From a phage, in the sequence record PZ379181.1: 44,789 bases of DNA. The stretch is one strand, 5' to 3'. Of the stretch, positions 306-41,961 are shown piece after piece; position 1 is the first letter of the stretch; the number at the start of each line of letters is the position of its first letter. The notes under the pieces are model-generated. The model saw nothing but the letters and a program-made list of their open reading frames with translations, made no database searches and was not told the origin of the DNA. Both the position numbers and the translations under genes were made by a program.

Positions 306-956
306 TTAGAATGTGTCGATTTCTTGAGATTGTACTTCAACTTTTTCTTCTTGAACAGACTTTTGTGCAACCTGTTTAGGTTTTGCAGGATTGAAGCCGT
401 TAGTTGCATTAGCCTGAATTTCTGCCTTACGCTCAATGATGTGAGGTTCAATCACCAGCCAACCAGCTGAATCAAGAGACTGCTTGGCTTCTTTGTATAC
501 ATCACGCAGGTCATCAAGAGTGTTGCACTTAGCTAAATCTTTCTTAAATGAGTTGATACCCTTAACTGCAAGCTGACCATCATCATCTGCCTGGCTCAAT
601 CCTAATGCCGCTGTAATTGCATAACGGCGAGCATATGTAAGTGATGAGCCGTAACCTTGAGCATCTTGCTTGCTGATTGGGACGATTGTCAGGAAGCTGA
701 CCCACTCTCCAGATTCTGCATGATAGACAGTTGTTTCAACCTTAATTCTAGTTGTGGCTTCATCATCAATCATGCCTTGAAACATGACCAGGCCGCTATC
801 TGCAAGGCCAGGCTCTACAGCCGCCAGTACGTCTTCCAGGGTGGCGTACCTGTTCTTTAGGTGCGAGTTCTGCTTTGACTTTTCAGCCTTTGCAAACTTT
901 GATTTGGCCTCAAATAAAGCCTTCAATACTTGCTTGTTTTGATCTGAAGTTTTCAT
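306..956 (-). CDS. erf: Erf-family single-strand annealing recombinase
   Basis: 216 aa; NRYATLEDVL and GSSLTYARRYAITAALG motifs typical of the ERF family; sits with exonuclease and SSB-like genes. Confidence 0.7.
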   Translation of the reverse strand: MKTSDQNKQVLKALFEAKSKFAKAEKSKQNSHLKNRYATLEDVLAAVEPGLADSGLVMFQGMIDDEATTRIKVETTVYHAESGEWVSFLTIVPISKQDAQGYGSSLTYARRYAITAALGLSQADDDGQLAVKGINSFKKDLAKCNTLDDLRDVYKEAKQSLDSAGWLVIEPHIIERKAEIQANATNGFNPAKPKQVAQKSVQEEKVEVQSQEIDTF

Positions 957-1014
957 TAACTATCTCTCTTTCGTTTAAGTGGGGCAATCATACCTCACCT
1001 TTTGATTTTGTCTT

Positions 1015-1029
1015 TAGCAATTAGTGCTA
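1015..1029 (-). promoter_or_regulatory. TAGCA-N5-TGCTA operator/promoter module (upstream of erf)
   Basis: TAGCAattagTGCTA; contains the exonuclease stop TAG; TATGAT and AAACGAAAGAGAG leader follow on minus strand. Confidence 0.5.
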
Positions 1030-1998
1030 TTTTAGAAGTTCTTGATACTGCTTACTTACCCACTCAGGAATCATCAAATCTTGCTCTGTAATCCCATTGC
1101 TATACCCAGGCCATACATCAAGCTCCTTGCACTGTTTGTATGTTGCTAGTGCCTCACAATATTGTAAACGACCAATGCGAAGCTGTTCATCTGTAAGCGT
1201 GTAGCTCATTGGTAAGTAAGGCTCCGTTTTTTCCTGCGCCAGAAGTCGAACCACAACCTTACGCTTCTCGTTAAATGCCTTCACGAACAAGTCACGCTGA
1301 AGGCTCATTTTGCACAGGTATCCATGGTCATAAGCTGACTTGCCAAATCCTCTCGGGCTTGCGTCCGCCGTCGTCTTGTAGTCAGTAATGAAAACCACGC
1401 CATCAACAACATCCACGTGATCAAGCCTAACCTTAACACCACACCCAAGAATCTCACCAAAGATTGATAGCTCTTTCTGTGCTGTTGGTGAGTTAATAAT
1501 CGCATCGTAAGCTGGGATATTAGTAAGAACCTCGCGCATTGAGATTACCTTATCGTAATCTTTCGCAGTAACGAGCTCTTTGCCACTAATTAACGCCTCA
1601 GCGCTCTCCTGCTGCTCAATTAACCATTTAACAGGCCAATCCTCACCAGATTTATACATCATCTCCACGAGCTCGCTATATCCCTTCCCTGACGTGCCTG
1701 AAACTCCAACTTTTTTAAGCGCTGCGGATAAAGCCGTTTGGCTAGTAATCAATCCTTCCACTTCGTCAAAGTCAGTAGCTCGCATGTATGTTGAGTCAAA
1801 TACCTCGCGCTCTAGCATCATGCAGTGACTTAGTGTGCCAAATTTAAGTGCTGCGCTAGAGTTATTGCGCTGCTTAAACTTCCATTTAGCTGGTGAGGTA
1901 GCAAGAATCTCAGCCAGTGAAGAGCCAGAGATATGGTCTTGCTCTTCGTGATAGGATTCATTTGTTAGCTCGTCGTTCGTATAAACTTTAAATGTCAT
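1027..1998 (-). CDS. Recombination exonuclease (PD-(D/E)XK-like)
   Basis: 323 aa; D..D...DYK nuclease-like motif (VRLDHVDVVDGVVFITDYKT); directly upstream of erf. Confidence 0.55.
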   Translation of the reverse strand: MTFKVYTNDELTNESYHEEQDHISGSSLAEILATSPAKWKFKQRNNSSAALKFGTLSHCMMLEREVFDSTYMRATDFDEVEGLITSQTALSAALKKVGVSGTSGKGYSELVEMMYKSGEDWPVKWLIEQQESAEALISGKELVTAKDYDKVISMREVLTNIPAYDAIINSPTAQKELSIFGEILGCGVKVRLDHVDVVDGVVFITDYKTTADASPRGFGKSAYDHGYLCKMSLQRDLFVKAFNEKRKVVVRLLAQEKTEPYLPMSYTLTDEQLRIGRLQYCEALATYKQCKELDVWPGYSNGITEQDLMIPEWVSKQYQELLK

Positions 1999-2590: not shown

Positions 2591-2666
2591 ATTGGCGTAA
2601 CATTGCGTATATCATTTTTCGCGGATGAGATTGCATACATCGAGTTACATCGGTTACGCGTAAACA

Positions 2667-2681
2667 TAGCACTAATTGCTA
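2667..2681 (+). promoter_or_regulatory. TAGCA-N5-TGCTA operator/promoter module (upstream of methyltransferase gene)
   Basis: TAGCActaatTGCTA followed by TATAGT-like -10 and ACAAACAACGAGAGAG leader. Confidence 0.5.
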
Positions 2682-2740
2682 AAACTGATCCGCAAAACCG
2701 GGTATAGTTAGCAACACAAACAACGAGAGAGAATTTTAAA

Positions 2741-3430
2741 ATGGTTATCTGGTCTTTATTTGATGGTTCTGGTCTGGCGGTAAAGGATTGGGCTGAAGCT
2801 GGCCACACTTGCTACTGTTTCAACTTTGATGAGTCTGACCACGGCAGCTACAGTGACTTAAATGCAAAGGTTGAGCATGAGAACATCACATACGTTAACG
2901 CATGGATAGATGCTGACTTCGATTTTGATGTGAAACCTGATTTTATAATGGCGTTCCCTCCATGCACTGACTTAGCCGTGAGCGGATCAAGACACTTTGA
3001 ACGCAAGTGTATAGCTAACCCTAACTTCCAAATTGAAGCTGCGGAGACGTGCAAGATTGCTTTTAATCTTGCTGAAAAATACGGAGTACCATACATGATC
3101 GAGAACCCAATCAGCGTACTGTCATCACTTTGGCGAAAACCTGATAACACCTTCCACCCATATGAATACGGAGGCTATTTGCCGGAAGATGATTTACACC
3201 CGTTTTTTAGCGACCTAATAAAGCCAAAAGACGCATATCCCAAGAAGACATGCATTTGGTATGGCAATGGGTTTAAATGGCCAGAGGCAATTCCAGTGGA
3301 CGTTAACGGTGGATTCTCTGACCAATACAAGAAGCTAGGCGGGAAGAGCAATAAGACAAAGGTAATTCGCAGCCTAACTCCTCGCGGTTTTGCAAAAGCC
3401 GTCTTCATTGCAAATAGCACCAATTGCTAA
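2741..3430 (+). CDS. DNA methyltransferase (SAM-dependent; class uncertain)
   Basis: 229 aa; FDGSG (FxGxG SAM motif), then FPPC and ENP in the order seen in C5-MTase motifs I/IV/VI; could equally be a T1 Dam-like enzyme. Confidence 0.5.
   Translation: MVIWSLFDGSGLAVKDWAEAGHTCYCFNFDESDHGSYSDLNAKVEHENITYVNAWIDADFDFDVKPDFIMAFPPCTDLAVSGSRHFERKCIANPNFQIEAAETCKIAFNLAEKYGVPYMIENPISVLSSLWRKPDNTFHPYEYGGYLPEDDLHPFFSDLIKPKDAYPKKTCIWYGNGFKWPEAIPVDVNGGFSDQYKKLGGKSNKTKVIRSLTPRGFAKAVFIANSTNC
3415..3429 (+). promoter_or_regulatory. TAGCA-N5-TGCTA operator/promoter module (upstream of lipoprotein gene)
   Basis: TAGCAccaatTGCTA; its TAA is the stop codon of the methyltransferase ORF. Confidence 0.5.
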
Positions 3431-3498
3431 AGACAAATCTCAAGGATGAGATATCATTACTCCATTGAAACGAAACACACCTTCTAAGGAATACGAAA

Positions 3499-3744
3499 AT
3501 GACTAACTTAATCAAACTTTCAATCATCGCAGCAGCAGCAATCATGATGGTGGGTTGTTCTTCTGCTCCGCGTCCTGACGGATGGTGTGCAACGCAAGCA
3601 AACGGCGTGTGCGTGGCTAAATGGGAAAATGGTGTGGTTGTACCGTCTGGTGAAGTTGATGTGCGATACGCTGGTATTGAGAGCAAGGCTGGCGGCGGTT
3701 ACGGTGGCTCTGTTGCTGACCATGGGTCTAAGGAGTGGAAATAA
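3499..3744 (+). CDS. Small lipoprotein, putative superinfection-exclusion (Cor/Llp-like)
   Basis: 81 aa; hydrophobic signal peptide with lipobox-like MVGC; immediately upstream of putative receptor-binding protein gene. Confidence 0.5.
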
Positions 3745-4706
3745 TGCCTCAAGGAATATTGATTGACCTTAATGATGGAAGGCCACCTATGGAAATAACG
3801 GCAGGATTAAGAGCGCCCGCTGTGACTGGCTCAATAAATACCAATGGACTTTCGACGCCAGCATCATCATGGGATTTTGGTTTAACCATGTCCCCAGGCT
3901 CAACAGCATTCTGCCTTCCAACAAAGGCTGTGCACGTTGACGCTTATGATGTTGTACCTGAAGTTTATTATATGAACGGGTTCCAGAAGGTAAATGACGG
4001 AACTGGCAGGATAACGCTTAGTGACTTCAATGGCGCAAGAGGTCGTATAATTGACTTTGCTGGAAATTGCTTTGAAATACTCCCAGCCTCGTCTTCATCA
4101 AGCCCAGGAATACTGGTTGAGAACTCAACTGACTTTTTGGCAATTTCAAGCAATTCGCGGTTAATGTCTGCGGCATGGGTTGGTGGAATACAGGTTAACG
4201 GCGCCGCCTCACTACCAGTCAGTGGGATTCCATTTGGTAAATGGGATAACCCAAACGTTTCTCTGGAGAGCGACGGTAATACAATTTGGTGCCGCAACAT
4301 AAACTACAGCGGCATAGATGACGTTGCAGCAAGTACTTACGTACAGTTAGTGATATTCAGGAATGACCCTCCAGTAGCTGGCCCAGGACTCACAATGTCT
4401 AATAGTTCTGGACAGATTGTTTTTTCAAGCGTCAGGCGACCGTTCGTGCTTGGTGGCTTTATACAAATAACCAATGGTTTCCAGTCAATAAATGGAGGGT
4501 TCTTCCCACTGCTCAGGTGCGGCGCTACAACAAGAGTTACTGGAGGGTATAACAACTTAAGGTACAAGGGAATATGCATGTCTGGTGGTGCCGTAAGGGC
4601 AGTTCCAGGCACTGTGATAGGGAACTACTCAACGCAGACGGGGGCCCAATTCCCATTCGACACAAACATATCAATGGCTCTACCATTCATACCAAACTTC
4701 TACTAA
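3744..4706 (+). CDS. Putative receptor-binding protein
   Basis: ATG at 3744 overlaps lipoprotein stop (TAATG) with AAGGAG RBS; 320 aa; convergent with and adjacent to the J-like gene, the usual position of the dedicated RBP in T1/T5-type siphoviruses. Confidence 0.4.
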   Translation: MPQGILIDLNDGRPPMEITAGLRAPAVTGSINTNGLSTPASSWDFGLTMSPGSTAFCLPTKAVHVDAYDVVPEVYYMNGFQKVNDGTGRITLSDFNGARGRIIDFAGNCFEILPASSSSSPGILVENSTDFLAISSNSRLMSAAWVGGIQVNGAASLPVSGIPFGKWDNPNVSLESDGNTIWCRNINYSGIDDVAASTYVQLVIFRNDPPVAGPGLTMSNSSGQIVFSSVRRPFVLGGFIQITNGFQSINGGFFPLLRCGATTRVTGGYNNLRYKGICMSGGAVRAVPGTVIGNYSTQTGAQFPFDTNISMALPFIPNFY

Positions 4707-4735: not shown

Positions 4736-7700
4736 TTACCACACTCCAACTACAACCCTTCCACCATTCGGTAAATTAACTGTAATTCCATTATTGTTAA
4801 TCTGAACAGTGTTGTTGGTTCCGTTAAACGCAAAGTTGCCGTTACTTGCGTACAGACTACCCCTTACAGTTGCATTGTTAAGTTCCGCACTGCCTGACTT
4901 ATCAATGGCCCAACCCTGAGAACCAGCCACGTAGTTATTAGATTGAATCCGGTTACCAATCTTCGCGTTAGTGATTGAACCATCCTGAATCACTGCGCTT
5001 TGAATGAATACCTGATTACCTTCAACTACGAAAGGCAATGACCACTGACCGGATCCAGAGCTAATGCCGTTACTGATTGCTAACCTGTTAGCATCAAAGA
5101 TGACCTGACTACGAACATTGCCATCAGAACCAGTTAGCTCCATACTCATGCCAGAACTGTACTCAACGCCATTGTATTTGAGGCCAAGTTTAATCCCGTA
5201 CTGAGCACCAATTGAATCGGCAGTAACGTAAGTGTCCAACTTCTCATTTAACGCAGCCTCATTATCACCTAGCCTTGCAGATAAAGCAGTGTCCGCAGTG
5301 GTCCTTGCTTGCGTCTCTTCCGCTAGCGCCGTATCAATCCTTGTCAATGAAGCTACAATCTCATCATCAATCTGCGCCTTAAGCTGCGTCAGAGCCTCTA
5401 CGCGAGCCCTTTCTTCATCGGCGATAAGATTCACAGCCTGAACAAATTCGGCCTTCCTCTTGCCGTTTTCCTTCGTCATTCTACGCACGTCACCATCATT
5501 AGCCAGGGCGTTCTCAATTATTGATTCCGCTTGCGCCTGAATAGCTCCGTTTGACTCAATGGCATTCTGTTGGAGATACTTGAACCCATCTGAGTTTTCT
5601 ATATCAACCTTAATATCACCAATGATTGACGACACATCATCGCTTGCCATACCCCTTACAAAATCAGTCCATGGTGAGACGTTACCAATCTTGTCAATCA
5701 GTCGCGCCCTGTACCAGATGACCTTTCCAGCAGGAAGTGTAGTATGCCAGTACTCGTAACTCGGGTAAGGCACCAGAGTCAGAAGGCTAGCATTCTCTGG
5801 TGTATAAGTACCATCACCATTGTCGGCTACTTGCTGCAATTCAGTGTATGACGTATCGGCTGAGTTTTCAGGAAATCCCCACTTAACCCTAATGCCGAAT
5901 ATTTCATCATCTGAAGCGGTGATTACTGTAGGTGAAGAAGGGGTCCCAATCTTGCCTGTGAGGCTTACTGAAACAATGTCAGACCATGCGGATACGTTTT
6001 CAGTATCAGAAACGGCCCTTACGCGAACCTGGTAAATTCCGGCATAGATACCTTCAATATCAACCTCTGTGCTTGCTGTGCGCGGCACGTTAATCCAGTT
6101 TCCGTTCTCCTTGCGCCACTGTACCGTGTAGGTTTTCGCGTACTGAACCTTGTCCCACGTGATTACCATTGTCTCAACTGATAAACCCTGAACAACCTTA
6201 CTGTAACTGCTAACCTGAACATTCTCGGGTGCCAGTAATGTATCTGGCTCCACGATTGAAGTTGGCCTGTCCTGAATGTTTACGCCGTAATCAATCTCGT
6301 CGTATTTGTTCGGGTCGTACTCAACTGCGGTAATCGTGTAACCAAACGCATCATCTCCATCGCTGTCTGCTTTTTGAATACCGGTCACAACATATTGCTG
6401 AAGAGCAAGATTTTCCTTATCAATCGCAAATACTGTGTCAGGCTGAGGAGTAAAGCTAAACGCTGTATTAAGTTGCAGCGTCATACCATCTTCAGATACA
6501 GATGCAATGGTCCTGTACTCCGGCATTCCATCAGGCTTGTTTATTAGAATCCTGTCGCCAGCAGTAGCATCAATCTTAAATGGCACAAAAACTTGCAACC
6601 CACTTACTGACTCGATACGACCAGAAAGGTTAAGGGTGTAGTTGCTAGACCATGCCTGGTCATTAACTGCAATAACCTCACCAATCATTGGAATCATACC
6701 TTCCAGACCAGTAGTGAAACTAATAGTCTCGCTGCGAATGTTCGTCTTTAATAACCAGCGCCCGCGGCGGTTTGCCTCACTCCTGCGAGTACATCCAATA
6801 GCTGTAAGGTCGACCGGGTTGTAACCAAAACGCCTTGTTGCCTCTAACTCGAATACTGGCTCAACATCCTGTTGGTATGAGTTTTCAACGTCATCAAACT
6901 GAACGTTGGCAACCGTGTAAAGTGACTTATCGCTACCAAATGTACGGTTGAACAATCCATCAACAACGTTGTCATTGGTGAATACGTACGATGGTTGACG
7001 CGGCTTATCGACAACAATCCCTATCTGCTCGCCGTCATAGAATGTCAGCCCACGGAAGATAGAGCAAATATCACGGATTACCTGATATGCTTCAACTTTC
7101 TGCTGAATGACAACATCACACAGGTAGCGCGGCTCAACTCCACCCTTACCATCTGGAACCATCTGGTCACAGAATTGCGCCGCCTCATACAGACCCCACT
7201 TATCAATAGTAATGCCAAGCTCTCGCTGGTCAAGTCCGTAACGCTGATTCGTCACCAAGTCGTAAAGAACCCACGCCGGGTTATTGGAATACGCCATCTT
7301 AAAGGTGCCGTTCCAGGTTCCGCTGTAAGTCCTTGTCTCTGGGTTGTAGTTAGTTGGAACGCGAATCAACTTCCACTTCTTCTTGATTGAAATCGTCGGG
7401 ATTCCGTTAGGGAAGAGGTCAGAACTGAACTCAACGTAAACCAGCGCTGTAAGTGGGTAGCGGAATTTCGCATCAATTACTTCCTGATAGGTCGTAATTT
7501 GCATATTGTTAACCAGCGTCGAACTTTCTGAATCTGCCGTGATCTTACGAACCCTCACCAACGCACTCGAGAACTCAGCAGGAAGGTTAACCCTGATACT
7601 TCTGTCGTACCCGCTAGTTGTCTTGCCATTAGCTACTCCGCGCGTGTACTCAGTGTATGTAGCGCCATCAACGGACAGGTCAATCGCATACTCGCAAGTG

Positions 7701-14388: not shown

Positions 14389-14637
14389 TTACTTTGATTC
14401 GTTTTTTACAATGTTGTGAGCAACTTCGGTGCACACTTCACGACCATAGTGCAGAATCTGGTTTGTCTTATCGCCAGCTACTTTTTCACAATGCGAGTAT
14501 GCACTATTAAATTCATGTTCATACTTTATTGCATCAGAGTTTGCGGTTTCGCCACCAGTTGGGTTAACAATCTGAATTGCCAGGTAGAAAGCACCAAGAG
14601 CAGCAGCAAGTTTGATGATGTTTTTAACGTTGTTCAT
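14389..14637 (-). CDS. Small secreted/membrane protein (82 aa), moron-like
   Basis: N-terminal hydrophobic segment IIKLAAALGAFYLAIQI; own operator module upstream and terminator before it. Confidence 0.5.
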   Translation of the reverse strand: MNNVKNIIKLAAALGAFYLAIQIVNPTGGETANSDAIKYEHEFNSAYSHCEKVAGDKTNQILHYGREVCTEVAHNIVKNESK

Positions 14638-14698
14638 TTCACTAATATCTCATTTCGTTTCGATGAATGAACTATACAGCAATCCGCGATTTGGTCTT

Positions 14699-14713
14699 TA
14701 ACAAAAAGTGCTA
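14699..14713 (-). promoter_or_regulatory. Operator/promoter module (degenerate half TAACA) upstream of 82-aa gene
   Basis: TAACAaaaagTGCTA with downstream TATAGTT...CATCGAAACGA leader. Confidence 0.45.
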
Positions 14714-14718
14714 TCAAT

Positions 14719-14745: not shown

Positions 14746-15423
14746 TTATGACAGTTCAGAAGCTACAGAACTCAACCTACCACGGATAGATACCGCGATG
14801 GATACCGTTTCGATTTCGTTAACACCAATGCTTGGGGTGTCGTTGAAAGCGATAGTGCCAGACTGGAGACGCATCTCGCTAGCTCGAGGTACGAACAGAC
14901 GAATAGCAACAACAGTACCAGCTTCGTCATAGTTACGCAGAATCGGATATACCGGGTTGGTGTATTCGTGCGCAAACGTGTAGGTGTTGGTTACCGCAGA
15001 CTTATAAGTTGGAATCTGCTGCTCACGATCATCAGATAAACACTGGAAGTTAACGAACTGCTGTTCGCCGCCATCAGTGGATACGTCCTGAACACAAGGA
15101 ACTTCAAACCAAGTAAGAATCTTAACAACTTCACCAGTTAAGCCAGCTGGTAACTTAGTGGTGTTGGAGGTATCAATACCTTCAACAGTTACGGTTGAAC
15201 CAGATACCTCGGTAACGCGAACTTGCTTATCAGCCAGCAGGGTCGAAGCTGAGCTGGTAAATAGCAGGTAATCACCGCGTGCAATATCGGCAACGCTGGA
15301 CAAAGTTAAAACAGGAGTAACAGCATTGGAAATTGCAGTTACGTCGATAGCAGCTCCCCTAGTGCCTTCTACGAAGACCTGAGTGCCGTTTGATAAATGA
15401 GCAATAATACACCTCCAAATCAA
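14746..15423 (-). CDS. Major tail protein
   Basis: 225 aa between tail-terminator-like gene and G/GT chaperone; no in-frame ATG, apparent TTG start at 15423 (internal GGAGGTG SD-like sequence). Confidence 0.6.
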   Translation of the reverse strand: MIWRCIIAHLSNGTQVFVEGTRGAAIDVTAISNAVTPVLTLSSVADIARGDYLLFTSSASTLLADKQVRVTEVSGSTVTVEGIDTSNTTKLPAGLTGEVVKILTWFEVPCVQDVSTDGGEQQFVNFQCLSDDREQQIPTYKSAVTNTYTFAHEYTNPVYPILRNYDEAGTVVAIRLFVPRASEMRLQSGTIAFNDTPSIGVNEIETVSIAVSIRGRLSSVASELS

Positions 15424-22701: not shown

Positions 22702-23055
22702 TTACTCGAATTTTACTTCGAACTTGATTGATGATGTTTTCACTCCATTAAGTGTTAACTGGCGAACCTCCCTTCTGACTTCATAAAATGCCTCTTTAGT
22801 TACTATGTCTTTGTTGATGAAGTATTTAATCCCAGCCTTTTCAACTTTAAAATTATCACCTTTAACGACAAAATCGGTAGGCTCTATAACTTCGAAATCA
22901 TAAACACTAAGATTAATTACGCCCACATAGCCTTTATCATCCTTAACTTTGACGTATTCATTATTACTTTCAGACGTTCTTGATAAGTCATAAATCTTAC
23001 CAACGGTAAATTCAAAATAACCATATTTTTTATACCCTTTAAATACTGCTTTCAT
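22702..23055 (-). CDS. hypothetical protein (117 aa)
   Basis: ATG start; own operator module upstream; between terminase and portal genes. Confidence 0.5.
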   Translation of the reverse strand: MKAVFKGYKKYGYFEFTVGKIYDLSRTSESNNEYVKVKDDKGYVGVINLSVYDFEVIEPTDFVVKGDNFKVEKAGIKYFINKDIVTKEAFYEVRREVRQLTLNGVKTSSIKFEVKFE

Positions 23056-23112
23056 TTTTTACTCCTCTCGTTTGCGTGAAGTAACTATAAGCCATCCTTG
23101 GCGGCACGTCTT

Positions 23113-23127
23113 TAGCAAAACGTGCTA
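23113..23127 (-). promoter_or_regulatory. TAGCA-N5-TGCTA operator/promoter module (upstream of 117-aa gene)
   Basis: TAGCAaaacgTGCTA; its TAG is the terminase large-subunit stop codon. Confidence 0.5.
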
Positions 23128-24696
23128 TTTGATGCCAGCGAGGCGCATCATCCTCGATTTAGGGTCTTCTGCAATGTTCAGTACCAGGTTTACGGCCATT
23201 GTCAAACAGTCTATCTGGTCATCGTGAACATGTGAATCATCTGCCGTGAATGCCGCAATCTCCGTTAGCAAGCCATTAAGCCAAGTAGCAGACTCCGGAA
23301 GGATTACGTTACCAGCTTTAATCTGCGGCAATGCACTCATTACGCGAGTCAGCTTATCGTTATCCGGAACGTACGGCTCGATAGGCGTTCGCATAACCCT
23401 TCCGGCTGATTGAATCAGGCCAATACCAGAGGCTTTCTTCTCGATGATGATTTTACGAAGGATGCCATCTATCTGATTGGATGCCCTAGCCATCTTCTCG
23501 AAATCCAATAACTCAGCCTCGAGCTCAGGAGCTTCAAATTTACCGCGCCGCTGGTCAAGCAGATAAATCTTCCCATCCTTATAACCCCATAGCTGCATGA
23601 CGCTAAAGTCGCTGTAACTTTTGGTTGTCATCGCAGTATCAAGGACCATAAACCTGTAATCGTACTTAGCTGGCGGTCGCAGAGTGTCGCTAATGCGTTG
23701 AAGCCAGTCTACGTTAATCAGGTTGCCGCCAAGTGCTACTGGTTCTTGCTGATACTGGCTAAGGAATGTATAGCTATCAGAATCCCACATTGCAACTAGG
23801 TCGTGAACAGATTCCTTGCCAGGGAAATAGCTATAGTACCTAACACCATCACGCTCAATATATTCGCTTGATAGAACGTCATCAATGAATTGCCGCTTAA
23901 TCCAGTCAGGAAGCGTGTCGACGTAATCCTCAGTTACGAGCGCCGGTATCTTAATCAAGTCGAAGCTAATACCCATACCGCCATTCATCATGAACCACGT
24001 ACTATCATTCACATGAAGGCGCTGTTGGATAGAGATAATCGGCGTCGCCTTTCCTTTTACGGAGCTCGCCCTACGAGAGCGTATTGTATTCTTTAGCATC
24101 ACGTGATTGTTAGCGCGAAAAACAGCAGAAAGCATGTCGGCTGGTTTGTCAAAATCATCTAACAGAACCGCTCCGCTATATGAATCCGTTATATATCCAC
24201 CCCTTGCGCCGGTTATTTGGCCTCCAGCAGCCTTAGATATTGACTCAAACCGAACCTTACCAGACTCATCCAGAACTTGAAGCTCATCATCCTTGCACGT
24301 ACCGAACTTGCATGGGAATAACTCCTGGAACTCAACAGACTTAATCAGGTCCCGAACTCGCTTGGAGTTACGCTTAACAAGTGAGTCGGCAAACGAGATG
24401 TTCAGGTTCCTGACCTTCTTTAGCTTAACCATCGAGTAGGCCGGGAAGTGAATTGAAGCTATCTCTGTTTTTCCACTTCCTGGAGCGATGTTAATGATTG
24501 TGTCCTTGCGCTCACCAGCGATAATCTCGTCAATGATTCGACACAGGTATTTGTGATGCCAGTTAGGGATGTATCGCTCGCCCTGGGTAAGTTGGAACCA
24601 CACCCGCAAGAATCCCTCGAAACTATGAGTGGATATAGCCTTAACTGCCATCTTTTCTGCTGGCGTCATTTCTTCCCATACTAATGTTTCACTCAT
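23125..24696 (-). CDS. Terminase large subunit
   Basis: Start at ATG 24696 with GGAGAG RBS; Walker A NIAPGSGKTE; about 523 aa. Confidence 0.9.
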   Translation of the reverse strand: MSETLVWEEMTPAEKMAVKAISTHSFEGFLRVWFQLTQGERYIPNWHHKYLCRIIDEIIAGERKDTIINIAPGSGKTEIASIHFPAYSMVKLKKVRNLNISFADSLVKRNSKRVRDLIKSVEFQELFPCKFGTCKDDELQVLDESGKVRFESISKAAGGQITGARGGYITDSYSGAVLLDDFDKPADMLSAVFRANNHVMLKNTIRSRRASSVKGKATPIISIQQRLHVNDSTWFMMNGGMGISFDLIKIPALVTEDYVDTLPDWIKRQFIDDVLSSEYIERDGVRYYSYFPGKESVHDLVAMWDSDSYTFLSQYQQEPVALGGNLINVDWLQRISDTLRPPAKYDYRFMVLDTAMTTKSYSDFSVMQLWGYKDGKIYLLDQRRGKFEAPELEAELLDFEKMARASNQIDGILRKIIIEKKASGIGLIQSAGRVMRTPIEPYVPDNDKLTRVMSALPQIKAGNVILPESATWLNGLLTEIAAFTADDSHVHDDQIDCLTMAVNLVLNIAEDPKSRMMRLAGIK

Positions 24697-25774: not shown

Positions 25775-25850
25775 TGGTGTTCCGCACTGGACTCGAACCA
25801 GTAACTAAGACTTAGGAGGTCTTTGCGTTATCCTGTTACGCCAGCAGAAC
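25775..25850 (-). tRNA. tRNA-Arg (anticodon CCU)
   Basis: 76 nt folded by hand: 7-bp acceptor stem GTTCTGC/GCGGAAC, D arm GCGT/ACGC, anticodon loop CTCCTAA, T arm ACTGG-TTCGAGT-CCAGT, discriminator A, encoded CCA. Confidence 0.85.
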
Positions 25851-26656: not shown

Positions 26657-26793
26657 TATTCATCATCCTCCTGCATCCATGAGACTTCGCGATTATCACC
26701 ATCGCAAATGAATTCGGTACCTTGTTTTTCGTGGAAGTAAATCAAGTCATCAATGAATTCAAATTCGTAAGGGAACCATCTCATTCGTTTCAT
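26656..26793 (-). CDS. hypothetical small protein (45 aa)
   Basis: Hand-translated; below ORF-track size cutoff; TAATG overlap with downstream gene. Confidence 0.3.
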   Translation of the reverse strand: MKRMRWFPYEFEFIDDLIYFHEKQGTEFICDGDNREVSWMQEDDE

Positions 26794-26852
26794 ATCTCTA
26801 TCTCTCTTCGTTGTTTGATGGGTTAATTATATGGCATCCATGCCTGTCATGT

Positions 26853-26993
26853 TTAGCAATTCGTGCTATCCATTTTATCTTCACGCTCTTTCCATAGATT
26901 CATTAGCTCGAAGTACATCATGGCAACCTCGCCAGTCTTAGCCTCATCCATCATCCGTTTAGCCCACTGGCTTGGTGTTTCGTAGTTATCCAT
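26853..26993 (-). CDS. hypothetical small protein (46 aa)
   Basis: Hand-translated; stop codon lies inside operator module. Confidence 0.3.
   Translation of the reverse strand: MDNYETPSQWAKRMMDEAKTGEVAMMYFELMNLWKEREDKMDSTNC
26854..26868 (-). promoter_or_regulatory. TAGCA-N5-TGCTA operator/promoter module
   Basis: TAGCAattcgTGCTA with hairpin, TATAATTA and CCCATCAAACAACGAAGAGAG leader before ATG 26793. Confidence 0.5.
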
Positions 26994-27930: not shown

Positions 27931-28139
27931 TCTTCGACCACCTTGTACTCGCCTTCTTCAAAACTAACCATCTGTCCTATTGATACTAACTCAGTATCAC
28001 GAATCGCTCGAGCTGATAAGCTACCACACCCGAACCGACCGGTTACTTCTAATACGTCACCAACCTTAAACCCGCATTCTTCAAGTGTCAGAACGCCTTC
28101 TTCTGGTATGTAGTTCACGTCGATAATTTTAATTTTCAT
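27927..28139 (-). CDS. hypothetical protein (70 aa)
   Basis: Start moved to ATG 28139 downstream of the operator module (track start 28193 is TTG inside the module). Confidence 0.45.
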   Translation of the reverse strand: MKIKIIDVNYIPEEGVLTLEECGFKVGDVLEVTGRFGCGSLSARAIRDTELVSIGQMVSFEEGEYKVVEE

Positions 28140-28198
28140 ATCTATACTCCATCTCGTTGTCGATGTGGTAATTATGCCGGATTTCTCCGGCAATTGTT

Positions 28199-28213
28199 TA
28201 GCAATTCATGCTA
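28199..28213 (-). promoter_or_regulatory. TAGCA-N5-TGCTA operator/promoter module (exemplar)
   Basis: In gene orientation: ATAGCATGAATTGCTAAAC, hairpin GCCGGAGAAATCCGGC, ATAATTA, CCACATCGACAACGAG, GGAG, ATG 28139. Confidence 0.55.
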
Positions 28214-28363
28214 TTCACCGATTTCATCACGAAGAACATAACACTCAACACCCCCTCCAAGAACGTCCAGCTGAGATTTTGCATCTTCGTAACACTCATA
28301 AGCCCGAATATGCTTAACGCTGTTGAATTTTCCCGTATAGTATGTGTGAACGTAATAAATCAT
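28211..28363 (-). CDS. hypothetical small protein (50 aa)
   Basis: Hand-translated; stop TAG inside operator; ATGA overlap upstream. Confidence 0.3.
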   Translation of the reverse strand: MIYYVHTYYTGKFNSVKHIRAYECYEDAKSQLDVLGGGVECYVLRDEIGE

Positions 28364-28820: not shown

Positions 28821-28880
28821 CACATCCTCTTTTGCTTTGCTTCAATAAGGCCACTATATCAAATGGCCTTGCGGAAGGTT

Positions 28881-28895
28881 TAGCAATTCGTGCTA
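28881..28895 (-). promoter_or_regulatory. TAGCA-N5-TGCTA operator/promoter module
   Basis: TAGCAattcgTGCTA; downstream GATATAGT -10-like and AAAGAGGATGTG leader. Confidence 0.5.
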
Positions 28896-28896
28896 T

Positions 28897-29137: not shown

Positions 29138-29326
29138 TCAGTAGCAGGTAGCCAGGAAGTCGGCGATACCTTTTGAGGTTGCTTCCGGCATACTACGTAC
29201 TGCAACATCGTAACCAGCCTCAACCTTTGCAATCGCTGACTCTTCGTTGTATCCGAACATTGTCAGGATGGTGATTACGTTTTCTTTATTCAGGACTTTA
29301 AGTTCTTTAGTGATGCGCTTAGCCAT
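29138..29326 (-). CDS. hypothetical protein (62 aa)
   Basis: Start moved to ATG 29326 after AAGGAAAACGAAA; longer track ORF begins inside the promoter hairpin. Confidence 0.4.
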   Translation of the reverse strand: MAKRITKELKVLNKENVITILTMFGYNEESAIAKVEAGYDVAVRSMPEATSKGIADFLATCY

Positions 29327-29391
29327 TTTCGTTTTCCTTTGTGCCTCTCGTTTCGATGAGATAATTATGCCATCCATGGCATTATTGCGTT

Positions 29392-29406
29392 AGGCAAAAA
29401 GTGCTA
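29392..29406 (-). promoter_or_regulatory. Operator/promoter module (degenerate half AGGCA)
   Basis: AGGCAaaaagTGCTA followed by hairpin ATGCCATGGATGGCAT, ATAATTAT, CTCATCGAAACGAGAGG. Confidence 0.45.
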
Positions 29407-29514
29407 TTTCCATTCAGTAGTAATTTAGCTTTCCGATATAAATCCATAGCCACCCCAACCTCATCCTCATCCTCACTGTACCGCGGATGGTATGGTAGTA
29501 GACTACCATACCCA

Positions 29515-30036: not shown

Positions 30037-30295
30037 ATTCGTTACTCCTGATTGGTTGCTCTTCGTTAAGATGAAACCATGGTATCATGAATATACGCGT
30101 TATCAAGTGTTATGTTGTGTTTATATCTGCATTGGTTACGCTTTTTGACCTCTCAGCCCAGCTATAGCTGGTGTAATTACCCTGTGTAAGATTTTACGCG
30201 GATTCGCCGGGGGTATGCATATGTATCTATATAGATAAAATTAGTAGTTTTCATAGAAAAACTATCGACCCATCCATACGACCAATCTACACCAT

Positions 30296-30373
30296 ATACA
30301 TACATATATATAATAATAATAATAATATAGTAAAAGGTTGATATATATAGATATTATTATGTAACCATTGCGT
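30296..30373. repeat. AT-rich block with (ATA)n tract, copy B
   Basis: About 85 percent identical to 2511-2590. Confidence 0.8.
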
Positions 30374-30521
30374 AATCTAGCGTGGTAGGCGTGTATGATT
30401 CTTCGGAAGCGCACCTCATATACACACCATAACTTCGATAACGTGTATATCCAAATTGGCTCAGCAAGAATCAAAATCAACTTGTATGGTAGTCCATCCA
30501 CCATTCATTCACCCCACATCG

Positions 30522-30622
30522 ATCATTGCAAATTCTGCAACAATCAAAAACATCATTGCATTCGATGCAATATTGCTATATGTGCAATAATGAGATGAAT
30601 CATTGCAATAGCTGCAACAATC
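30522..30622. repeat. Iteron-like cluster of seven TGCAA/CATTGCA sites
   Basis: ATCATTGCA x3 and TGCAA(C/T)AAT(C/G) x4 within 100 bp, both orientations. Confidence 0.6.
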
Positions 30623-30637
30623 TATAAATCCAACGAA

Positions 30638-30652
30638 TAGCACTTTTTGCTA
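30638..30652 (+). promoter_or_regulatory. TAGCA-N5-TGCTA operator/promoter module (plus-strand operon)
   Basis: TAGCActtttTGCTA followed by TATGTATTCATCGAAACGG. Confidence 0.5.
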
Positions 30653-30883
30653 ATGCACAATCATTAGTAAGTTGCTACTATGTATTCATCGAAACGGTGC
30701 TGGACTCTGAGTCACTTCCGAAAGGAACCAAAAGAGTGAACGACACCGCGCAATGTGAGGAAGCGTTACCTTACCCACCAAAGCGCCTTGCGGGTCCTTT
30801 TGATAGGATGCCGGGCCGGGTTTAAAATCCCGAGTTGTAGTGAGTACGTTGAAGAGATTTCGATAACAAGAAAACATAGAGAG

Positions 30884-31054
30884 ATGACAGTGATGACAGA
30901 AAAAACAGTTGGTTACAGTTACAGTAATGGTCATTGGGTTGTTGAGTTAAAAGGGTTTCACAAGTACCCAAAATTAAGTTTCTTCATGACAGAAGATGAT
31001 GCAAAGTCTTGGGTTCAGGTTCTTAAAGAAAGGTGGTTTAAAAATGAAACTTAA
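30884..31054 (+). CDS. hypothetical protein (56 aa); start uncertain
   Basis: Frame is open from 30755 but first ATG with upstream GAGAG is 30884/30893. Confidence 0.35.
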   Translation: MTVMTEKTVGYSYSNGHWVVELKGFHKYPKLSFFMTEDDAKSWVQVLKERWFKNET

Positions 31055-31637: not shown

Positions 31638-31801
31638 TGCTTTTACCATCTGATATAAACTATTTCGATCTGGAAATAATTAGTGCTTACAGCGGAAAGG
31701 GTTGGCCTTGCGGGGACTGGTTTAACGAGGACCTGCTTGAGTCTCACGAGATTATGTTGAAGGCAATTGAGAAGGCCAGAAAAAATAGCACTAATTGCTA
31801 A
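31637..31801 (+). CDS. hypothetical small protein (54 aa)
   Basis: Hand-translated; TAATG overlap upstream; stop TAA inside operator motif. Confidence 0.3.
   Translation: MLLPSDINYFDLEIISAYSGKGWPCGDWFNEDLLESHEIMLKAIEKARKNSTNC
31786..31800 (+). promoter_or_regulatory. TAGCA-N5-TGCTA operator/promoter module
   Basis: TAGCActaatTGCTA followed by GTATATTTACTCCATCGAAACGAAAGAGAG and ATG 31861. Confidence 0.5.
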
Positions 31802-31860
31802 AACTCACCGCCACGGATGGCGTATATTTACTCCATCGAAACGAAAGAGAGCAAGAGATC

Positions 31861-31980
31861 ATGTTCGACAACTTTTATGACGAGATGGAAGAGGCGGTTT
31901 TCATGGCGTCGCTAGATGGTAAGATTTACGGTTTAGTTCAGAAGTTTGATAAGATTGTTGTGCGTATTGTGCGCAAATAA
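31861..31980 (+). CDS. hypothetical small protein (39 aa)
   Basis: First ATG after module. Confidence 0.3.
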   Translation: MFDNFYDEMEEAVFMASLDGKIYGLVQKFDKIVVRIVRK

Positions 31981-32021: not shown

Positions 32022-32411
32022 ATGACTACTACGATAACCAAAAATTTCATTAGCAACGACAACAAGCTATTTAAAGCTCGCGTTAAAAAGATTCACCAGT
32101 GGGTTAACGGTGTCGCTGAGGAAGTTGAATTTGAGCAAATCAAAAAAGACGGCAAATGGATCAACCTGGAAGAACGTGGAAAATACATTAAAACCAAAAC
32201 TCTTTACTGCACAAAGGTTAACCATAAGTCTGGCGTTAAGAAAGACTTCAAAGAAGGTAAGCGATACCAGGTCAACATGCATAGCGGACTTGGTCAGTCA
32301 GCTGGATACATTTACGATGAAGATGGCAACGCCTGGCAGCTATATCGCAGCGAAGATGTTGGCTTTTATACGTTGTGTGAAACTTACCACTTTGAGGCTC
32401 AATACAAATGA
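32022..32411 (+). CDS. hypothetical protein (129 aa)
   Basis: ATG start. Confidence 0.45.
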   Translation: MTTTITKNFISNDNKLFKARVKKIHQWVNGVAEEVEFEQIKKDGKWINLEERGKYIKTKTLYCTKVNHKSGVKKDFKEGKRYQVNMHSGLGQSAGYIYDEDGNAWQLYRSEDVGFYTLCETYHFEAQYK

Positions 32412-32578
32412 AATTATACATTGTAAGTGGTTGCACACACTATGATGGAAGCGAAGTGATTGCCGCTTTCGATGAAGAATTCAAAGCACAGGAGTTTAAA
32501 TATAACAAAGAAATATCTTCAGAAAATCACTTTGACTACTACAAGATAGATTGCATCTTACTAAATAGCACTAATTGA
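32408..32578 (+). CDS. hypothetical small protein (56 aa)
   Basis: ATGA overlap upstream; stop inside operator motif. Confidence 0.3.
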   Translation: MKLYIVSGCTHYDGSEVIAAFDEEFKAQEFKYNKEISSENHFDYYKIDCILLNSTN

Positions 32579-32580
32579 TA
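32566..32580 (+). promoter_or_regulatory. Operator/promoter module (degenerate right half TGATA)
   Basis: TAGCActaatTGATA, then TATAAT at +23 and GCGGAGAGAAG before ATG 32639. Confidence 0.45.
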
Positions 32581-32638
32581 ATGCATTATAAGCGGCTATT
32601 GATATAATGGCCGCTCAGAAACAATGCGGAGAGAAGTA

Positions 32639-34222
32639 ATGTTTGATTTCAATGAAGATAAACTATCTGTTGAGCAAGTTATGGCGATCGCTGCCAATGA
32701 CAACCTACCACCGCTTCGCGTGGCTATTAATGCCAATGGCTATCGACAGTCTCAATCGTTCTGGAAAGCACCTGTCGAGATTGATACAGGTAATGATAAG
32801 TATCCAGTAATCTCACTCGGTAATGATATTGATGTTGTTGGTAAGCTATCGGCTAATATCGCTCGCTCGGTTCAGTTCCCTGAGTCGTCAGCTTACATGC
32901 ACTTTCTTGGTTGTGTTTCTGCTGCAATGCTTGGGCGTTTTACTGTCGAGTATCATGGAACCCAACAGCCAACATCTTTGTACGTGGTAACAAGTCAGCC
33001 GCCTTCAACTGGTAAATCAGCCATTAACTCGCTATCAATTGCGCCGATGATTGCTGAGACTGAGCGGTTGAATGAAGTACGTAAACGTGATCGAAAAAAG
33101 ATTATGGCTAAACTGTCCGCTCTGGCTAAAGAGATGAAGCAGGAGAAATCACCTTCTGAAATGGCTTCACTTTTTGAGGAGAAGGAGGATTTAGAGGAGA
33201 AGCTCGAGAAGCTATGCGATATAGTATTCCCTGTCTCCGATACTACTCCGGAAGGTCTTGCGCGAATCAACAATCGCCAGGGTAATTTTGCGGTAATCTC
33301 TGATGAGGCTACTAGCGTCAACTCACTGTTAGGCATGACTTACGGTGATGGCTCGAAGAAAACGAACAGCGAGCTCGTGCTGAAAGCATGGGATGCAGGT
33401 AATGTGTCAATTGCCCGTGCGAACGCAGAAAATAACATGAGCTTTGTGGCTATGGGATGCATCTCCGTAATTGCTCAGGATGAAACAATCAATGCCATTA
33501 TGAATGCTGGTGCGCGTGGTATTGGTGTATCTGAGCGTTTCCTTCTGGTGCGTGAAAAATCATTTCTTGGCGACCGTGTATTTGTTGATGAAAATGGTGA
33601 TTCAACCTATGAGGCTATTGATGGCGGCCTGAAAGCAGACTATTTCCGTCTTGTTCATGAGATTATGAATGAAGTTGAAGTGAAACTTACTGTAAGCGCG
33701 TCATCAATGCGTTACCTTAACCGCGCTCGTCAAGAGATGGAGCCTCATCTTGGTGATGGTGGCAAGTATTCTCACACAATGTTGCGCGGTGCTCTTGGTA
33801 AGTTTGATAAGCAAGCAATCCGCATCGCTTCTGTTCTGCACGTAATTCGTAACTGGTTCTCACCAGCCGGATCCAGCCCTCAAAAGTCAAGAGAGATTGA
33901 ACTGGATACAATGCAGGAAGCGGTTATGATTTTCAACGAACTAAGCAAGACTTATTTATCATCCGCTAGTGCTGCTGGTCATGCTGGTGACAATGCCGAG
34001 ATGAACAAGCTGGTTGATATCCTGATTAAGCAGGGCAAGAATGGTAAAGGTGTTGTTGGTGTTCGCTCGTTGTATGAGGCTGCACGCAAGGTTAAACCTT
34101 TTGAAGCTCAGGCTGGAATTATGACTCGCATTAAGGACCACTTGATTCCTATGCTTGATGAGAAAAACTACACATGCCTGATTGGTGATAAAATTTACAT
34201 TAATCCACGATTGCTGGGGTAA
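32639..34222 (+). CDS. Putative replication-associated P-loop protein
   Basis: Start at ATG 32639; 527 aa; Walker-A-like SQPPSTGKS; sits in replication region. Confidence 0.4.
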   Translation: MFDFNEDKLSVEQVMAIAANDNLPPLRVAINANGYRQSQSFWKAPVEIDTGNDKYPVISLGNDIDVVGKLSANIARSVQFPESSAYMHFLGCVSAAMLGRFTVEYHGTQQPTSLYVVTSQPPSTGKSAINSLSIAPMIAETERLNEVRKRDRKKIMAKLSALAKEMKQEKSPSEMASLFEEKEDLEEKLEKLCDIVFPVSDTTPEGLARINNRQGNFAVISDEATSVNSLLGMTYGDGSKKTNSELVLKAWDAGNVSIARANAENNMSFVAMGCISVIAQDETINAIMNAGARGIGVSERFLLVREKSFLGDRVFVDENGDSTYEAIDGGLKADYFRLVHEIMNEVEVKLTVSASSMRYLNRARQEMEPHLGDGGKYSHTMLRGALGKFDKQAIRIASVLHVIRNWFSPAGSSPQKSREIELDTMQEAVMIFNELSKTYLSSASAAGHAGDNAEMNKLVDILIKQGKNGKGVVGVRSLYEAARKVKPFEAQAGIMTRIKDHLIPMLDEKNYTCLIGDKIYINPRLLG

Positions 34223-35782: not shown

Positions 35783-35956
35783 TTAATCTGCGATAATAAA
35801 TTCCACCAAAGAGCCATCAATCGGCGCAAGGATGTGAGTCATATCGTCACCGTAAACTTTGTAGTAACCGTCACCTAGAGACTCTGCGCTGTACGGCTGG
35901 TTTTCGGTGAACGGCAGTGTCTTTGAGTTGTTTTTAACGCAGTATAATTTAGTCAT
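35783..35956 (-). CDS. hypothetical small protein (57 aa)
   Basis: Hand-translated; operator module and GAGGA RBS upstream. Confidence 0.35.
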   Translation of the reverse strand: MTKLYCVKNNSKTLPFTENQPYSAESLGDGYYKVYGDDMTHILAPIDGSLVEFIIAD

Positions 35957-36014
35957 TTTTGAATCCTCTGTTGTTTTCGATGTAGTAATTATGCCGGATT
36001 ACTCCGGCGATTGT

Positions 36015-36568
36015 TTAGCAATTCGTGCTATTTATTACGTGCATTACCAAAGCAGAGGTTCCATCAATATCACCATCTACAACATGAACGTCAATTTCTC
36101 TTGCGCAGACACCGCGAATGTAGGAGCGGCTATCTCCATCAAAAGTATAGCCAGGCCTAAAAAGTCTAATCAAAGTAACTTCAACCCCTGAATCAATGAG
36201 AGTATTAATCTCGCTAGCGAAGCCACCATCAGCACAGATATAGCAACCATCACCAAGTGATTGCGCTAGCCTTTTACCGAAAACATCATCACCAAAGACT
36301 GGCTTCATAACTGACTCACTAATCCAAATCATAAATTCACGAACCGTCATTCCACCAAGAAATTCATGTGGTGATTCTTTGTACTCTCGGTCATCGTAAT
36401 TCTTAATAAATTCATCAAACTCATCGCTTGATAGTATTCCTTTTGCAACATTAAACATTGGTGACTTGAATGAAACCTTATCCTTGCAAATTCCAAGATT
36501 AACAATGATATCTGCAACTGTATCTTTTCCAGCACCAGGGGTGCATTAAGGATGATTAACTTTTTCAT
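36015..36568 (-). CDS. dNMP kinase-like P-loop kinase, frameshifted
   Basis: N-terminus MKKLIILNAP; P-loop PGAGKDT and the rest of the protein are in the -1 frame after a 4-nt run (plus-strand GGGG 36538-36541); resembles T4 gp1 dNMP kinase. Confidence 0.55.
36016..36030 (-). promoter_or_regulatory. TAGCA-N5-TGCTA operator/promoter module
   Basis: TAGCAattcgTGCTA; contains the kinase stop codon; hairpin GCCGGAGTAATCCGGC and CATAAT at +23. Confidence 0.55.
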
Positions 36569-41948: not shown

Positions 41949-41961
41949 TTGAGGTAATGAG

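Follow-up and report, generated by a model that had tools for sequence, protein, structure and literature searches.

We have analysed a stretch of 44,789 nucleotides (nt) of phage DNA (sequence record PZ379181.1; "the window" means this whole stretch), which represents a T1-like siphophage of E. coli (Drexlerviridae). Its gene order is that of IME542 and T1; it is 80-86% identical to phiA2-1, TR1 and IME542, and its right third is approximately 91% identical to Escherichia phages ES and AN_ECEAS. Here we are concerned with a short element repeated throughout this genome, with a 15-bp palindromic core, TAGCANNNNNTGCTA (TAGCA-N5-TGCTA), with the promoter modules that it heads, and with the question of which protein, of the phage or of its host, reads it.

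The exact palindrome occurs 12 times in the window, against 0.11 copies expected from 100 dinucleotide shuffles of the same DNA, and 18 times with at most one mismatch, against 2.25 expected (18 was reached in none of the 100 shuffles). A preliminary description, made from the letters of this DNA, had listed 17 start coordinates, and a copy is indeed present at all 17: eleven are exact, five carry one mismatch (14699, 32566, 37102, 41934 and 43935) and one, at 29392, carries two. An exact copy at 38367 was absent from that list. A further copy had been placed inside the tail fibre open reading frame (ORF) at 44537; the sequence is there, but its GCAC is changed to GCTC and its position weight matrix score is 14.4, against 24-34 for the others, and it is probably a chance or decayed match.

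Sixteen of the copies head a module of constant build (a 20-bp box containing the palindrome, a spacer, a -10 hexamer, a conserved leader and a start codon), as had been proposed, and all sixteen are oriented with the downstream gene. The same had been said of every copy, but the copies at 38367 and 43935 point the other way and lack a -10 at the distance seen in the modules. In the sixteen modules a -10 hexamer with A2 and T6 begins 21-23 nt (22 +/- 1) past the palindrome, which is 17-19 nt past the 20-bp box; it is followed by tacc.C, then AUCGAAACGA, a purine-rich Shine-Dalgarno region and the start codon. Transcription start sites (TSS) are throughout predicted ones, about 7 nt past the -10 hexamer; the start codon lies 22-35 nt downstream of them and about 72-88 nt from the first base of the box. 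The modules are as follows.

956-1030, minus strand, module 1: box 1011-1030 ATAGCACTAATTGCTAAAGA; spacer 18 nt; -10 TATGAT 987-992; TSS about 980; ATG 956; gene 306-956 for an Erf-like single-stranded-DNA-annealing protein (Pfam ERF).
2666-2743, plus strand, module 2: box 2666-2685 ATAGCACTAATTGCTAAAAC; spacer 17 nt; -10 TATAGT 2703-2708; TSS about 2715; ATG 2741; DNA methyltransferase gene 2741-3430.
3414-3501, plus strand, module 3: box 3414-3433; spacer 18 nt; -10 TATCAT 3452-3457; TSS about 3464; ATG 3499; ORF of 81 amino acids (aa), then membrane protein gene 3735-4706.
14635-14714, minus strand, module 4: box 14695-14714 ATAGCACTTTTTGTTAAAGA; spacer 18 nt; -10 TATAGT 14671-14676; TSS about 14664; ATG 14637; in the late region, past the terminator of the major tail gene.
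23053-23128, minus strand, module 5: box 23109-23128 ATAGCACGTTTTGCTAAAGA; spacer 19 nt; -10 TATAGT 23084-23089; TSS about 23077; ATG 23055; 117-aa ORF, then the portal gene.
26791-26869, minus strand, module 6: box 26850-26869; spacer 18 nt; -10 TATAAT 26826-26831; TSS about 26819; ATG 26793.
28137-28214, minus strand, module 7: box 28195-28214 ATAGCATGAATTGCTAAACA; spacer hairpin GCCGGA-GAAA-TCCGGC; -10 CATAAT 28171-28176; TSS about 28164; ATG 28139.
28821-28896, minus strand, module 8: box 28877-28896; spacer 18 nt; -10 TATAGT 28853-28858 in the loop of AAGGCCA/TGGCCTT; TSS about 28846; GTG 28823.
29324-29407, minus strand, module 9: degenerate box 29388-29407 ATAGCACTTTTTGCCTAACG; spacer 18 nt; -10 CATAAT 29364-29369; TSS about 29357; ATG 29326.
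30637-30700, plus strand, module 10: box 30637-30656; spacer 19 nt; -10 TACTAT 30676-30681; TSS about 30688; heads the rightward early operon (ORF 30755-31054 onward).
31785-31863, plus strand, module 11: box 31785-31804 ATAGCACTAATTGCTAAAAC; spacer 18 nt; -10 TATATT 31823-31828; TSS about 31835; ATG 31861; 39-aa ORF, then 32022-32411.
32565-32641, plus strand, module 12: box 32565-32584 ATAGCACTAATTGATAATGC; spacer 18 nt; -10 TATAAT 32603-32608 between arms GCGGC/GCCGC; TSS about 32615; DNA helicase gene, ORF 32624-34222, probable start ATG 32639.
35954-36031, minus strand, module 13: box 36012-36031; spacer hairpin GCCGGA-GTAA-TCCGGC; -10 CATAAT 35988-35993; TSS about 35981; ATG 35956; 57-aa ORF, then holin, endolysin and spanin genes.
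37041-37117, minus strand, module 14: box 37098-37117 ATAGCATTTTTTGTTAATAA; spacer hairpin CCTCAA-AGGA-TTGAGG; -10 CAAAAT 37074-37079; TSS about 37067; ATG 37043; polynucleotide kinase/phosphatase-like gene.
39369-39453, minus strand, module 15: box 39434-39453; spacer 18 nt; -10 TATTAT 39410-39415 in the loop of GGTGAGTTGGTG/CAACTCATC; TSS about 39403; ATG 39371.
41863-41949, minus strand, module 16: box 41930-41949 ATAGCATTTTTTGTTAAACA; spacer 17 nt; -10 TATTAT 41907-41912; TSS about 41900; ATG 41865; ATP-dependent helicase gene 39871-41865.

We compared six genomes, in all of which the box is found and which together represent four genera: the window, IME542 (record label L001), T1 (L002), the Vibrio phage Vc1 (L003), the Pantoea myovirus AAM37, which lies outside Drexlerviridae (L004), and Alina (L007). 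A weight-matrix scan found the 20-mer 18 times in IME542, 24 times in T1, 16 times in Vc1 and 11 times in AAM37, and the box stays constant from E. coli phages to the Vibrio and Pantoea phages. Of the 90 modules of the six genomes, 76 have exactly 18 nt between box and -10, and the others 17 or 19 nt; every -10 has A2 and T6, and 35 carry a TGn extension. No usable -35 was found, as had been noticed before: at the three spacings tried, matches to TTGACA averaged 2.7 of six. The leader, too, is borne out. It begins at the predicted TSS and reads AUCGAAACGA(r)AGAG in about 10 of the 16 window modules (for example 35981-35967, 39403-39389 and 31835-31849); it also occurs in IME542, T1, Alina and Vc1 (AACGAAAC), and not in AAM37, and could affect promoter escape, translation or mRNA stability. 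The seventh nucleotide after the -10 is a conserved A, which is only suggestive of the start position. Measured from the predicted TSS the palindrome is centred at -42 and the 20-bp box at -40.5/-41.5, and the class II activator position that the preliminary description had assigned to the element therefore stands.

The symmetry of the element stands only in part, since a partial dyad is present but positions outside it are conserved as strongly as the half-sites. Even among copies selected as palindromes, the base before the palindrome is A in 16 of 16, the first spacer base C in 13 of 16 and the last spacer base T in 16 of 16, and the two bases that follow the palindrome are A in 16 and 13 of 16, respectively, which breaks the symmetry. 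The left half-site is constant and the right one varies (TGCTA, TGTTA, TGATA, TGCCA). When two-fold symmetry was tested over 108 sites it failed: box pairs 1-17 and 7-11 are complementary in 5, and position 4 is G in 100, with its partner, position 14, being C in 58 and T in 36.

This asymmetric pattern resembles that of the marbox, the DNA site to which MarA, SoxS and Rob, activators of the stress and antibiotic-resistance responses, bind. The marbox has been described as GCAnnWWnTGnnAAA (PMC12052159), as GCAHWWWWTGYYAAA (PMC6900184) and as an A-site GCAC with a B-site (C/Y)AAA (PMC9638938); MarA, SoxS or Rob engages it as a monomer, by means of a pair of helix-turn-helix (HTH) motifs (PMC12052159; PMC6900184), and it is for that reason asymmetric and directional. 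The phage 20-mer, A-T-A-GCAC-nnW-T-TG-Y-T-AAA-n, agrees with these descriptors at all specified positions; the non-dyad A1, C7, T11, A17 and A18, together with the C or T at position 14, are what a marbox would lead one to expect and a palindrome would not. With at most one mismatch GCAHWWWWTGYYAAA has 18 matches in the window, against 1.47 expected, and 17 of them are copies of the repeat, each on the strand of its module; conversely, 17 of the 18 window copies have no mismatch or one to this pattern, which is enriched in all six genomes. Exact matches to the looser descriptor, GCANNWWNTGNNAAA (PMC12052159), number 13 in the window, 11 in IME542, 20 in T1, 12 in Vc1 and 6 in AAM37, where about one is expected. 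In T1, Vc1, AAM37 and Alina the majority of copies lack the palindrome yet fit the marbox: marbox matches and palindromes number 20 and 10 in T1 and 12 and 3 in Vc1, and among the 18 box matches listed for Alina, 5 are perfect palindromes.

The likeness extends to individual E. coli sites (the marR and micF sequences that we used are 100% identical to E. coli genomes). The box at 23109-23128 is identical to the marRAB marbox at 16 of 20 positions, 14 of them contiguous (CACGTTTTGCTAAA), and the common form ATAGCACTAATTGCTAAAAC (2666-2685 and 31785-31804) is identical to the micF box at 15 of 20. At micF, the standard class II promoter for MarA, SoxS and Rob, we measured a forward box, ACAGCACTGAATGTCAAAAC, 18 nt from the -10 TAGAAT and centred at -41.5 from the known MicF 5′ end. 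Published class II marboxes are centred at -41/-41.5, in promoters that lack a -35 and keep a canonical -10. All 16 window modules share this geometry, with a forward box, a gap of 18 nt (17-19) as against the 18 nt of micF, a centre at about -41 and no functional -35; they differ from micF in that the phage boxes lie nearer to the idealised consensus, number 16-20 per 45-50 kb genome, and are accompanied by a conserved transcribed leader and a structured spacer. At marRAB, a class I case, the measured box is reversed (reverse complement ATGCCACGTTTTGCTAAATC), lies 16 nt from the -35 and is centred at -61.5; a phage counterpart reversed upstream of a -35 promoter exists at 38366-38385, one helical turn farther out (a gap of 26 rather than 16 nt; -71.5 rather than -61.5).

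This and the other reversed copies, with the promoters that they adjoin, are the following.

38366-38385, reversed box: GTAGCACAAATTGCTAATTT on the plus strand, upstream of the exonuclease gene 37117-38250 (region 38304-38385, minus strand).
38304-38339, minus strand, exonuclease-gene promoter: -35 TTGAAT 38334-38339; spacer 17 nt; -10 TAGCAT 38311-38316; TSS about 38304.
43920-43974, plus strand, tail fibre promoter: extended -10 TGgTAGAAT 43920-43928; TSS about 43935; ATG 43972; reversed box 43931-43950.
Boxes in capsid promoter spacers of relatives: T1 (L002) 15049-15074; Alina (L007) 5997-6025; Vc1 (L003) 5700-5730.

The exonuclease promoter has its reversed box 26 nt from the -35, centred at about -71.5, which is the arrangement of a reverse class I site, here as a single site; reverse marboxes at such a position have been reported for fpr and acrA. 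The promoter region overlaps the end of an ORF, and in IME542 the hexamers and the 26-nt gap are kept there though the spacer sequence differs. The tail fibre box covers -4 to +16 of its promoter, an arrangement shared by IME542 and T1 and a placement that would probably be repressing or occluding. The strong sigma-70 promoter before the major capsid gene of T1, Alina and Vc1 has a spacer of 16 nt, and a reversed box takes up precisely this spacer (-35 TTGACG, TTGACC or TTGAAC; -10 TATTAT, TATTCT or TATATT); the capsid promoter of the window, TTGTAA-16-TATAAT (about 18880-18850, minus strand), has no box. A box also lies over the small-terminase start site of T1. E. coli marboxes that overlap core promoter elements go with repression (rob, purA, hdeA). 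A marbox located in a spacer can also activate, as at flgBP2 (PMC12781870), and at the late phage promoters the effect may be of either sign.

The observation set out in the preliminary description is thus confirmed, but its proposal that a phage HTH protein reads a symmetric operator as a dimer fares less well: the conserved positions are asymmetric and fit a monomer-bound marbox better. Judging from sequence and placement, we think it reasonably likely that the repeat is a marbox and that most promoters of the phage would depend on host MarA, SoxS or Rob (RamA in Klebsiella), and not on a phage dimer. An activator already in the cell (Rob, MarA or SoxS; RamA in Klebsiella) would dock on the box, contact region 4 of sigma-70 as well as alpha's C-terminal domain, and so recruit host RNA polymerase, with the box taking the place of the -35 and a -10 that is often TGn-extended; transcripts would begin about 7 nt past the -10, at the conserved A of AUCGAAACGA. 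The reversed box at about -71.5 from the -35 promoter of the exonuclease gene may act as a class I site, while boxes over a start site (tail fibre) or in a spacer (capsid, in T1, Alina and Vc1) may modulate, and probably occlude, late promoters. Boxes head early-region operons; given a host activator that is present at infection, these operons could fire before any phage protein.

A wider proposal, to which we would give somewhat less than an even chance, is that a family of virulent phages runs most of its transcription on host resistance and stress activators through idealised class II marboxes, and that occlusion of late promoters (tail fibre in the window; capsid and small terminase in relatives), together with titration of the activator by replicating DNA, gives an early-to-late switch without a phage regulator. 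The family concerned would comprise Drexlerviridae (T1 and the Klebsiella therapy phages of the genus Webervirus) and the Pantoea myovirus genus Dibbivirus.

Several points weigh against dependence on the host activators. The evidence for it is one of sequence and geometry; the same box occurs in Vc1, recorded on Vibrio cholerae, a host that may have no MarA/Rob homologue; and conservation at T2, A3 and T11 goes beyond the demands of the host consensus, which, like the perfect dyads of twelve window copies, would suit another reader too. Classical T1-resistant mutants reportedly map to fhuA and tonB, not to rob, marA or soxS, though redundancy of MarA, SoxS and Rob could hide such mutants. With a latent period that we take to be 13 minutes, two- to four-fold activation would seem weak. 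Published work gives just this modest range, 2- to 4-fold, for natural class II sites, and describes MarA and SoxS as scarce, and Rob as largely sequestered, in unstressed cells.

Which phage protein might otherwise be the reader? The preliminary description had named two candidates. One of them, 37117-38250, for which an N-terminal HTH had been suggested, encodes a DNA repair exonuclease of the metallophosphatase type (PHROG 704, E 5e-150), in which no HTH was matched. The other is a Cro-like gene, shown here with a weak box at its 3′ end.

41962-42435, plus strand, Cro-like HTH gene: own canonical sigma-70 promoter with TTGTTA 41884-41889, 16-nt spacer and TATAAT 41906-41911.
42412-42455, plus strand, weak and uncertain box: GCCGCACGAAAAGCTAAAGA 42412-42431 in the 3′ end of the Cro-like gene, 18 nt from CATAAT 42450-42455, which sits in the loop of terminator 42442-42465, upstream of HNH/primase genes.

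The Cro-like gene and the helicase gene of module 16 have overlapping divergent promoters with one common box, and their -10 hexamers (TATAAT on the plus strand, TATTAT on the minus strand) are read from opposite strands of one stretch of seven base pairs, 41906-41912. The gene is present in 831 phage records; the AlphaFold model of its product (predicted local distance difference test, pLDDT, 87.6) is all-alpha and shows a single HTH of Cro type, a basic arm at the N terminus and an extension at the C terminus, and its best Foldseek matches are Cro of Xfaso1, N15 and P22. On the strength of model and matches we rejected a hidden MarA fold.

We regard it as unlikely that the 15-bp dyad is the operator of a dimer of this Cro-like protein, activating at -42 and repressing where it overlaps promoters, its own included. 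Such a dimer would suit the twelve perfect dyads with their 10-bp half-site spacing, the widely distributed gene with its Cro-like fold, and the box that the gene, divergently oriented to the helicase module, has in its own 5′ untranslated region (about +12 to +31 of its transcript), which would fit autoregulation; moreover, a short homologue occupies this position in AAM37, whose boxes are the same. It would leave the asymmetry unexplained and would provide no activator for the early operons at time zero; in T1, Vc1, AAM37 and Alina dyads make up a minority of the copies. In addition, the presumed recognition helix reads SHQTVEQW in the window, CVRLTNAY in Vc1 and PFSGVRSW in AAM37, where the homologue also has no N-terminal arm, while the box is the same in all three, and the Cro-like protein is therefore disfavoured as the reader. 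A candidate operator set for it lies elsewhere: four true dyads TTGCA-N5-TGCAA (30526, 30556, 30573 and 30603, within 30526-30617), 17-30 bp apart, are clustered within the divergent early control region, a short distance upstream of the box at 30637, with equivalents in IME542 (L001, 13306-13367), at the left end of T1 (L002, 2-46) and, as TTTCA-N5-TGCAA, in Alina (L007, 42969-43013). From its sequence and position, this cluster is possibly the more natural operator set for the Cro-like protein, or else part of an origin or pac region.

Slightly less probable still, in our estimation, is that the reader is another protein: either an unrecognised phage-encoded monomer that reads marboxes by convergence or mimicry, or a host factor of another kind. 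The conservation of T2, A3 and T11 beyond the host consensus would accord with this, and the many small early ORFs without an assignable function leave room for such a protein. That phages can bring their own MarA-like gene is shown by gp49 of AAM37 (L004, 36758-37168), a MarA-sized AraC-family gene (Pfam HTH_18, E 1.8e-14; 29% identity to MarA) with a box directly at its 3′ end, in a genome that carries the same box and -10 modules. We rejected gp49 itself as the reader, its relatives being confined to three near-identical contigs and its helix-3 residues being unlike the DNA-contact residues of MarA and SoxS. No MarA homologue was found by tblastn with MarA and gp49 in the T1-like genomes (the window, T1, IME542 and Vc1), where a family hidden Markov model of MarA, SoxS, Rob and gp49, run with filters off, gave a best E of 1; nor did a MarA-family protein appear among the best 25 of 53 Pfam families in a search of all 73 ORFs of at least 85 aa. 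Besides the Cro-like protein the only uncharacterised protein common to the window and AAM37 is the 80-aa product of ORF 38586-38828, which we also set aside, its structural model being unusable (pLDDT 54).

Hairpins in and around the spacer had been noticed earlier, and they are indeed enriched: folding z-scores fall below -2 in 43 of 72 modules, against 20 of 200 random 38-mers. Some stem-loops are contained within the 18-nt spacer, others enclose the -10 (for example 28177-28192, 35994-36009, 37080-37097 and 39396-39430), their loops are often GNRA or UUCG, and 52 of 420 base pairs are G.U; as sense RNA they are stabler than as antisense (means of -9.7 and -8.3 kcal/mol; Wilcoxon p = 0.001). 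Some of the hairpins in Vc1 are complete terminators whose U-tract is the -10 region. Since class II promoters leave the spacer sequence unconstrained, the GC-rich hairpins are, in our reading, probably 3′ stem-loops or leaky terminators that belong to the unit upstream and are accommodated in the promoter of the next; those whose arms flank the -10 may have another role.

That the repeat itself acts in RNA or on elongating polymerase, either as a small hairpin of the dyad which, with the GC-rich stem-loop that follows, would make a terminator or a processing or stabilising signal, or as an L5-type stoperator, strikes us as highly improbable. The sense-strand bias of the neighbouring hairpins, the constant co-orientation of the repeat with transcription and the change of TGCTA to TGTTA, which keeps a G.U pair, speak for an RNA role; the conserved unpaired A1, C7, T11 and AAA would have no explanation, the rigid 18-nt distance to the -10 would be meaningless in RNA, and the phages are virulent and without a stoperator-type repressor. 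An Rfam scan of the window matched only a tRNA, with no family for the repeat element.

Direct contact of polymerase with the element, as a UP-like sequence or with TTGCTA as a -35 over a 22-nt spacer, is just as improbable: TTGnTA does resemble TTGACA, A-tracts flank the box and a UP element has been suggested (PMC11447400), but spacers of 21-23 nt are longer than sigma-70 accepts, the invariant GCAC does not resemble a UP element, and reversed copies at start sites and in spacers would make no sense. Three further identities were rejected: a sigma-54 promoter (TGGCAC-N5-TTGCW), from which TAGCAC-N3-TTGC differs in a spacing 2 bp too short and in having AG for GG, with a sigma-70 -10 following at a fixed distance; a long-spacer promoter of MerR type, in which the dyad would lie within the spacer and not upstream of it; and a T4 MotA box or UP element, wrong in position or composition. 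The phage tTGCTaAA does resemble the MotA box, which we take to be TGCTTtA, and T4 middle promoters (MotA box at -30, sigma appropriation by AsiA) likewise replace the -35 with a phage-wide box and use a host -10; the box described here lies 10 bp farther upstream, and no MotA or AsiA homologues were seen in family scans. The class II sites of FNR and CRP (-41.5) and of lambda cI (OR2) are also centred near -42, over the -35 position, and activate through contacts with sigma region 4 and alpha, as would be expected of the phage box; they are true dyads read by dimers, in contrast to the asymmetric phage box, which fits a monomer with two HTH motifs.

The repeat itself has already been published. 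The element was described in 2024 as a direct repeat of 21 nt, aaATAGCACnnnTTGnTAAAA, in phage TLS, and T1, Rtp and Rogue1 have it as well (PMC11447400); it is intergenic there and, as in the window, follows the direction of transcription and precedes start codons by about 76 nt. Its authors considered a stoperator, an enhancer-binding site or a UP element, counted its function among the open questions on T1-like phages and found almost no promoters (PMC11447400); the marbox identity, the fixed -10 partner and the reversed and occluding copies are not in that paper. Our literature searches found neither a mapping of transcription starts (5′ ends) in T1-like phages nor a paper tying marboxes to these phages. 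Read as class II marboxes, the repeats would supply the missing promoters and would constitute a compact, portable set of near-consensus marbox promoters. If the host activators do read them, phage gene expression would be tied to MarA, SoxS, Rob and RamA, drivers of multidrug resistance in enteric bacteria, and the state of mar/sox/rob/ram in the cell would influence how the phage grows; resistant isolates that overexpress these regulators are therefore predicted to be better hosts. This would bear on combinations of antibiotics with Klebsiella Webervirus phages, and on the notorious vigour of T1 as a laboratory contaminant.

Three other features of the window may be recorded. An AT-rich direct repeat of 96 nt (2503-2598 and 30288-30383; 76% identity), with (ATA/TAA)n and GTAAAAGGTTGATATATATA, has one copy in each of the two large divergent intergenic regions and may be an origin or an early promoter/UP region. 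The ends of the window, 1-90 and 44670-44759, form a 90-nt inverted repeat (96% complementary), which may be an artefact of assembly or linearisation, or two related gene ends in opposite orientation. Finally, a tRNA gene lies among the small early genes at 25778-25850 on the minus strand (Rfam RF00005, 58.9 bits).

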